Notes: generated by a model not told the origin, from the sequence alone. Positions 51,731 through 54,013 are shown, counted from the stretch's first letter. The stretch is DNA of 64,000 nt from Escherichia coli (GCF_044324875.1 NZ_CP172185.1); one strand, 5' to 3'. Program-made: numbers and translations.

Positions 51731-54013
51731 ATGTCCGAGCTTAATGAAAAGTTAGCCACAGCCTGGGAAGGTTTTACCAAAGGTGACTGGCAGAATGAAG
51801 TAAACGTCCGTGACTTCATTCAGAAAAACTACACTCCGTACGAGGGTGACGAGTCCTTCCTGGCTGGCGCTACTGAAGCGACCACCACCCTGTGGGACAA
51901 AGTAATGGAAGGCGTTAAACTGGAAAACCGCACTCACGCGCCAGTTGACTTTGACACCGCTGTTGCTTCCACCATCACCTCTCACGACGCTGGCTACATC
52001 AACAAAGCGTTGGAAAAAGTTGTTGGTCTGCAGACTGAAGCTCCGCTGAAACGTGCTCTTATCCCGTTCGGTGGTATCAAAATGATCGAAGGTTCCTGCA
52101 AAGCGTACAACCGCGAACTGGACCCGATGATCAAAAAAATCTTCACTGAATACCGTAAAACTCACAACCAGGGCGTGTTCGACGTTTACACTCCGGACAT
52201 CCTGCGTTGCCGTAAATCCGGTGTTCTGACCGGTCTGCCAGATGCTTATGGCCGTGGTCGTATCATCGGTGACTACCGTCGCGTTGCGCTGTACGGTATC
52301 GACTACCTGATGAAAGACAAACTTGCACAGTTCACCTCTCTGCAGGCTGATCTGGAAAACGGCGTAAACCTGGAACAGACTATCCGTCTGCGCGAAGAAA
52401 TCGCTGAACAGCACCGCGCTCTGGGTCAGATGAAAGAAATGGCTGCGAAATACGGCTACGACATCTCTGGTCCGGCTACCAACGCTCAGGAAGCTATCCA
52501 GTGGACTTACTTTGGCTACCTGGCTGCTGTTAAGTCTCAGAACGGTGCTGCAATGTCCTTCGGTCGTACCTCCACCTTCCTGGATGTGTACATCGAACGT
52601 GACCTGAAAGCTGGCAAGATCACCGAACAAGAAGCGCAGGAAATGGTTGACCACCTGGTCATGAAACTGCGTATGGTTCGCTTCCTGCGTACTCCGGAAT
52701 ACGATGAACTGTTCTCTGGCGACCCGATCTGGGCAACCGAATCTATCGGTGGTATGGGCCTCGACGGTCGTACCCTGGTTACCAAAAACAGCTTCCGTTT
52801 CCTGAACACCCTGTACACCATGGGTCCGTCTCCGGAACCGAACATGACCATTCTGTGGTCTGAAAAACTGCCGCTGAACTTCAAGAAATTCGCCGCTAAA
52901 GTGTCCATCGACACCTCTTCTCTGCAGTATGAGAACGATGACCTGATGCGTCCGGACTTCAACAACGATGACTACGCTATCGCTTGCTGCGTAAGCCCGA
53001 TGATCGTTGGTAAACAAATGCAGTTCTTCGGTGCGCGTGCAAACCTGGCGAAAACCATGCTGTACGCAATCAACGGTGGCGTTGACGAAAAACTGAAAAT
53101 GCAGGTTGGTCCGAAGTCTGAGCCGATCAAAGGCGATCTCCTGAACTACGATGAAGTGATGGAGCGCATGGATCACTTCATGGACTGGCTGGCTAAACAG
53201 TACATCACTGCACTGAACATCATCCACTACATGCACGACAAGTACAGCTACGAAGCCTCTCTGATGGCGCTGCACGACCGTGACGTTATCCGCACCATGG
53301 CGTGTGGTATCGCTGGTCTGTCCGTTGCTGCTGACTCCCTGTCTGCAATCAAATATGCGAAAGTTAAACCGATTCGTGACGAAGACGGTCTGGCTATCGA
53401 CTTCGAAATCGAAGGCGAATACCCGCAGTTTGGTAACAACGATCCGCGTGTAGATGACCTGGCTGTTGACCTGGTAGAACGTTTCATGAAGAAAATTCAG
53501 AAACTGCACACCTACCGTGACGCTATCCCGACTCAGTCTGTTCTGACCATCACTTCTAACGTTGTGTATGGTAAGAAAACGGGTAACACCCCAGACGGTC
53601 GTCGTGCTGGCGCGCCGTTCGGACCGGGTGCTAACCCGATGCACGGTCGTGACCAGAAAGGTGCAGTAGCCTCTCTGACTTCCGTTGCTAAACTGCCGTT
53701 TGCTTACGCTAAAGATGGTATCTCCTACACCTTCTCTATCGTTCCGAACGCACTGGGTAAAGACGACGAAGTTCGTAAGACCAACCTGGCTGGTCTGATG
53801 GATGGTTACTTCCACCACGAAGCGTCCATCGAAGGTGGTCAGCACCTGAACGTTAACGTGATGAACCGTGAAATGCTGCTCGACGCGATGGAAAACCCGG
53901 AAAAATATCCGCAGCTGACCATCCGTGTATCTGGCTACGCAGTACGTTTCAACTCGCTGACTAAAGAACAGCAGCAGGACGTTATTACTCGTACCTTCAC
54001 TCAATCTATGTAA
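51731..54013 (+). CDS. pflB: pyruvate formate-lyase (formate C-acetyltransferase 1)
   Basis: 760 aa; C-terminal glycyl-radical motif (RVSGYAVRF). Confidence 0.97.

Follow-up and report, generated by a model that had tools for sequence, protein, structure and literature searches.

The stretch of DNA analysed, referred to as the window, comprises 64,000 nucleotides of Escherichia coli chromosome (NZ_CP172185.1) and carries the elf operon, ssuEADCB, pepN, pncB, asnS, ompF, aspC, mukFEB and msbA, followed by rpsA, cmk, aroA, serC, ycaO, focA-pflB-pflA and dmsABC. Gene by gene, the window was 97–100% identical to annotated E. coli genomes. The locus of interest is pflB, a real gene evident both as an ORF and from its translation, which was 99.9% identical to the annotated pflB of E. 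coli 042 and of other E. coli strains. A long ORF lies opposite this gene, and the features concerned are as follows.

51731..54013, plus strand: pflB (formate C-acetyltransferase, pyruvate formate-lyase), 760 codons.
51752..54004, minus strand: shadow ORF opposite pflB, 750 aa, TTG start, codon-aligned; very probably a by-product of codon bias and no gene.
51752..51754, plus strand: the sole TTA of pflB (Leu codon 8), the reverse complement of which, TAA, is the stop of the antisense ORF.

Several differences from other E. coli were observed elsewhere in the window. At the left end (1–6300) the elf fimbrial operon adjoins ssuE, the arrangement seen in most E. coli. The strain that matched best and was used for annotation, NZ_CP062824, is without the elf operon, and between its ssuB and pepN lies an IS1397 insertion not present in the window. 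Two 718-nt elements (16629–17346 and 23755–24472), 100% identical and in inverted orientation, are both insertions relative to NZ_CP062824 and flank a 6.4 kb segment, ompF-aspC-gloC-mepK-ldtD, which this inverted pair could allow to invert. Each element contains one 169-aa ORF that matched the IS200/IS605-family transposase model NF033573 (NCBIfam); an identification of these two ORFs near ompF as IS1 was dropped on the NCBIfam result. Just past dmsA, an ORF on the minus strand (63154..63951, 265 aa) is a tyrosine recombinase/phage integrase gene, situated where the reference strain has serS. Positions 62858–64000 were covered by only 350 of 5424 E. coli genomes, which suggests that the window carries a prophage or island insertion at its right end.

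Measured from the pflB start, both ends of the minus-strand ORF lie a whole number of codons away (51752–51731 and 54002–51731 are divisible by 3). Antisense triplets thus pair one to one with pflB codons as their reverse complements, and the claim of the earlier note that the ORF shares the codon phase of pflB was borne out. In a codon-aligned antisense frame a stop (TAA, TAG or TGA) is possible solely opposite a sense TTA, CTA or TCA. Among the 760 codons of pflB there is one TTA and neither CTA nor TCA, and as the single TTA is codon 8, the antisense frame is open across codons 9–760; the gene is thus free of the three codons over some 750 codons, as had been proposed. The open antisense frame extends beyond the pflB stop, up to a TAA at 54014–54016, and the ORF itself spans 99% of pflB. 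Residues at which the three codons might have been used are plentiful in PflB (63 Leu and 36 Ser), of which 55 of the 63 Leu are encoded by CTG and 32 of the 36 Ser by TCT or TCC.

The same in-phase arrangement had been claimed for rpsA, ompF, mukB and pepN, and the coordinates were found to be exact and the ORFs all codon-aligned:

42114..43253, plus strand: shadow ORF opposite rpsA (41616..43289, minus strand), 379 aa, codon-aligned.
17807..18595, minus strand: shadow ORF opposite ompF (17765..18853, plus strand), 262 aa, codon-aligned.
24508..25284, plus strand: shadow ORF opposite mukB (24499..28959, minus strand), 258 aa, codon-aligned.
28435..28935, plus strand: second shadow ORF opposite mukB, 166 aa, codon-aligned.
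11633..12130, plus strand: shadow ORF opposite pepN (10802..13414, minus strand), 165 aa, codon-aligned.
12512..13081, plus strand: shadow ORF opposite pepN, 189 aa, codon-aligned.

TTA, CTA and TCA together account for one of 557 codons in rpsA, where the single TTA is codon 13 and the antisense frame is open over 544 of the 557 codons, and for two of 362 in ompF, both TTA (codons 15 and 281). The window contains 17 unannotated ORFs of 150 aa or more with overlap to an annotated gene, and 15 of these were antisense and codon-aligned. Over all window genes the codon-aligned antisense frame contained 22.5 stops per 1000 codons, compared with 38–67 in the other four alternative frames, and no other alternative frame was as open in any gene class.

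PflB, OmpF and ribosomal protein S1 are abundant in the cell, and translational selection acts on their genes in favour of codons with plentiful tRNAs. In highly expressed E. coli genes, few codons are less favoured than TTA, CTA and TCA (Sharp and Li CAI weights). Nc was 29.5 for pflB, 29.1 for rpsA and 38.1 for ompF, and 42–60 for most other window genes; none of the 47 window genes is more biased than pflB and rpsA, rpsA having the lowest and pflB the second lowest Nc. Across the window genes the density of TTA, CTA and TCA increased with Nc (rho 0.59, P = 1e-5). Chance expectation was calculated by simulation, in which the PflB protein sequence was kept and Leu and Ser codons were drawn from the usage of a chosen gene set. 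Under the usage of ordinary window genes 16.2 TTA, CTA or TCA codons were expected in pflB and one was present (P = 4e-7); over 5000 simulations the longest open run had a median of 140 codons and a maximum of 496. Under the usage of rpsA and ompF 2.8 such codons were expected, the probability of one or fewer was 0.23 and that of an open run of at least 752 codons was 0.058. The pflB ORF therefore exceeds chance under average usage, but not when the usage of rpsA and ompF, themselves strongly biased, is applied; that usage is sufficient to account for it.

The earlier note had attributed all of these ORFs to strong codon bias in highly expressed genes. This holds for pflB, rpsA and ompF, but is overstated for mukB and pepN, which have Nc of ∼39–40 and contain 11.4 and 9.2 TTA, CTA or TCA codons per 1000, respectively. 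When codons were permuted within each gene, the longest open run was typical for the gene's own count of these codons (mukB P = 0.56, pepN P = 0.73). High expression is thus not needed as a cause in these two genes, and gene length together with moderate bias suffices for their antisense ORFs of 165–258 aa.

Selection for an open antisense frame in pflB would be expected to make TTA, CTA and TCA rarer than other minor Leu and Ser codons, and this was not seen. Relative to ordinary genes, the usage ratios in pflB and rpsA were 0.13 for TTA and 0 for both CTA and TCA, while those of minor codons that generate no antisense stop were 0.06 for TTG, 0.10 for TCG and 0 for AGT. In 79 pooled orthologs, each compared with its own flanking genes, the control minor codons were used at 0.26 times and the stop-generating codons at 0.36 times the flanking level. 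Stop-generating codons are avoided no more than control minor Leu and Ser codons.

An open frame might also result from mutational or compositional bias, such as local GC3 pressure against A-ending codons, or from a scarcity of Leu and Ser. TTA, CTA and TCA all end in A and are rare throughout the window (2.25% of the codons of all window genes), and the general openness of the codon-aligned frame would agree with such an origin. Against it stand the abundance of Leu and Ser in PflB, the unremarkable GC content of pflB (∼0.51) and the adjacent genes: under the same mutational regime focA contains 28 and pflA 16 TTA, CTA or TCA codons per 1000, 12–20 times more than the 1.3 of pflB. Moreover, the preferred Ser codon TCT ends in T, and the G-ending minor codons TCG and TTG are avoided as well, which points to codon selection rather than GC pressure. 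A compositional origin is accordingly regarded as very unlikely.

The one interrupting codon is situated in a block of non-optimal codons (codons 3–15) at the 5' end of pflB. Within codons 2–15 (51734–51775) the non-optimal codons are GAG3, CTT4, AAT5, AAG7, TTA8, ACA10 and TTT15, each of which was the commonest choice at its position across 76 orthologs. TTA was found at codon 8 in 56 of the 67 orthologs with Leu at this position, compared with 37 of 4488 Leu codons elsewhere. In rpsA, too, the sole TTA (codon 13) falls within the first 15 codons, as does the earlier of the two in ompF (codon 15). The extreme 5' position of the sole TTA lengthens the pflB antisense ORF somewhat relative to random placement (P = 0.035). 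An early TTA is in line with the known tendency of genes to use non-optimal or A/T-rich codons close to the start, and not with selection on the antisense frame.

A further possibility is that all or a portion of the ORF is a true overlapping protein-coding gene, comparable to laoB and translated from an antisense transcript of pflB. The great length of the ORF (750 aa) speaks for this, as does its state in E. coli, where the frame was open in all six pflB alleles sampled, an outcome which codon bias predicts equally. The antisense start site reported in pflB, described below, also counts in its favour. Conservation was assessed in 80 Enterobacterales pflB loci with 89–99% protein identity, 79 of which were full-length and were used. 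The antisense frame was fully open in 17 of the 79 and broken in the remaining 62, with stops at 85 different codon positions. Close relatives were among those with an interrupted frame, including Salmonella enterica subsp. arizonae (three antisense stops), several Citrobacter and Enterobacter, and Klebsiella indica. The number of antisense stops rose with Nc (rho 0.74, P = 9e-15) and with the count of other minor Leu and Ser codons (rho 0.69), reaching 20 each in Xenorhabdus ehlersii and Pantoea conspicua, in which pflB is weakly biased. Openness among the orthologs follows the degree of bias and is not conserved.

The amino acids of the antisense frame were similarly unconstrained. Substitutions were divided into four classes, according to whether they were synonymous or not in the sense and the antisense frame, in 38 phylogenetically independent pairs of orthologs. 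Uncorrected for multiple hits, the antisense dN/dS proxies were dSN/dSS = 1.46 (bootstrap 95% CI 1.25–1.76), a value that rests on few SS sites (∼44 per sequence) and is inflated by codon bias on CAA, TCG and CCT, and dNN/dNS = 0.98 (0.70–1.42). The corresponding sense proxies in the same 38 pairs were 0.035 and 0.023. Purifying selection on the antisense amino acids, which the earlier note had named as evidence that would count against its reading, is therefore absent, the proxies being ∼1, and no sign of positive selection is claimed. Across orthologs, mean identity to the window was highest for PflB (93%), followed by nucleotides (88%) and the antisense translation (72%), and nearly all sense-synonymous differences among the six E. 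coli alleles were non-synonymous in the antisense frame (21 of 21, for instance). In sliding windows over 76 orthologs no significant trough of synonymous diversity was detected in pflB. The minimum over 15-codon windows was a ratio of 0.56 (permutation P = 0.32), and an overlapping element marked by local constraint was dropped as a candidate on this basis.

Signals for expression of the antisense ORF were also lacking. The antisense frame opposite pflB contains no ATG, no Shine–Dalgarno-like motif of at least 4 nt precedes any of its 17 in-frame GTG or TTG codons, and consensus scans of the minus strand within pflB found no sigma-70-like or extended –10 site; the suggestion that the frame would prove to be without a ribosome binding site was thus correct. 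The composition of the antisense translation is abnormal (V 15.5%, F 10.9%, M 0%, K 0.9%, P 0.9%) and mirrors the reverse complement of the preferred codons. When the antisense translations of pflB, rpsA and ompF were scanned against Pfam, all matches were chance ones below the cut-off. In the RefSeq E. coli records inspected pflB alone is annotated at this locus and the antisense ORF is uncalled.

An exact database look-up of the 750-aa translation gave no match, which may partly reflect how the TTG start is rendered. A homology search of 5.8 billion proteins returned 26 clusters resembling the antisense translation, with lengths of 421–783 aa; none contained a Pfam domain and all were unnamed or ‘hypothetical’, examples being ‘hypothetical protein ESA_02442 [Cronobacter sakazakii]’ and ‘Uncharacterised protein [Salmonella Typhi]’. 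Two distant matches (34–37% identity) were traced, and each was codon-aligned opposite an ORF in which a PFL-like Pfam domain was recognized (E ∼1e-206 to 1e-212), accompanied in one case by a Gly_radical domain. Since both lie opposite PFL genes, the apparent homology is inherited from conservation of the sense gene, and independent proteins at ∼35% identity were ruled out for the two that were checked. On the metagenome contigs L088 (1330–3795) and L089 (1318–3438) the shadow ORFs had been called, as proteins of 764 aa and 436 aa, and the gene caller had made no call on the PFL strand. The PFL ORF of L088 has no TTA, CTA or TCA in 806 codons, and this organism prefers CTC for Leu. The pflB antisense translation is thus found in databases in the manner of spurious calls opposite real genes, only as sporadic ‘hypothetical’ or unnamed proteins; it differs from such calls in that the RefSeq annotation of E. 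coli omits it.

Transcription opposite pflB has been reported. Raghavan et al. (2012; PMC3419515, Table 2) include it among 17 genes for which E. coli and Salmonella share an antisense-RNA start site, located in pflB at the same position in both; the read depths are modest (79 and 214) and the coordinate is unstated, and some antisense transcription is therefore likely. This transcription neither explains the 750-codon open frame nor is it evidence of translation. It can be asked if the relevant feature is instead a non-coding cis-antisense RNA to pflB, to which the ORF would be irrelevant. The shared start site makes such an RNA conceivable, yet it would leave the open frame unexplained; in addition, consensus scans of the minus strand within pflB found no near-consensus –10 or extended –10 element, no region of the gene has reduced synonymous diversity over the 76 orthologs, and most antisense RNAs were judged by the same authors to be non-conserved transcriptional noise (PMC3419515). 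This explanation is considered possible but rather doubtful.

The laoB-type genes of E. coli O157:H7 (PMC5810103; PMC7457138) resemble the pflB antisense ORF in being fully embedded antisense to an annotated gene and in the report of antisense transcription at the locus. They are far shorter and rest on ribosome profiling, promoter and terminator mapping and phenotypes, whereas the ORF opposite pflB is without start signal, conservation or purifying selection. Ardern et al. (2020; PMC7457138), who advocate antisense proteins, do not mention pflB, and when the literature was searched for pflB together with antisense and ribosome profiling, the single paper found dealt with programmed mRNA decay in operons, with no report of antisense translation. 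Mir et al. (2012; PMC3454372) have argued that certain long ORFs in alternative frames go beyond what is statistically expected, a point in favour of an overlapping gene. Set against the scattered interruptions in Salmonella, Citrobacter, Enterobacter and Klebsiella, the antisense proxies of ∼1 and the equal avoidance of control codons, a laoB-like gene at this locus appears extremely unlikely. Equally, there is very little chance that any part of the antisense frame encodes a functional protein; a sub-segment translated at a low level from the reported transcript, as a very young, lineage-restricted protein enabled by the bias-opened frame, is likewise highly improbable.

Frame –1 ORFs of this kind have been described before. 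Mir et al. (2012; PLoS One 7:e45103, PMC3454372) credit the description of long frame –1 ORFs to Merino et al. (1994; NAR 22:1903) and report that they are caused by highly expressed genes, for which Silke (1997; Gene 194:143) and Merino et al. (1994) are cited. The published ORFs share with the present one a codon-aligned frame, stops that depend only on sense TTA, CTA and TCA, and the greatest length in highly expressed, strongly biased genes. Nothing essential distinguishes the pflB ORF from these, of which it is one large example with its interrupting codon in a non-optimal 5' block. The phenomenon is ordinary, long known and already published (Merino et al., 1994; Silke, 1997; Mir et al., 2012).

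These data together indicate, with a probability of roughly 96%, that the minus-strand frame of 750 codons is a shadow ORF, a by-product of the codon bias of pflB, and not a second gene. The proposed sequence of events is that very high expression would place pflB under strong translational selection, leading to the almost exclusive use of CTG for Leu and of TCT or TCC for Ser; TTA, CTA and TCA would thereby be nearly lost from the gene, and the opposite frame would be open by default, presumably with no selection for its openness and no product made from it. We infer from established knowledge that the cause of the bias is expression-linked selection for codons read by abundant tRNAs. The same mechanism would act strongly in rpsA and ompF, and more weakly, aided by gene length, in mukB, pepN, mukF, dmsA and others. 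The earlier judgement that in-phase ORFs of this type are not evidence of overlapping antisense genes is upheld.

The value of the pflB ORF is chiefly as a negative control, namely a 750-aa ORF without coding function that is backed by a minor-codon control and 79 orthologs. Shadow ORFs are occasionally miscalled as proteins in public databases. The length of an ORF alone is therefore no evidence for an overlapping gene opposite a highly expressed gene.
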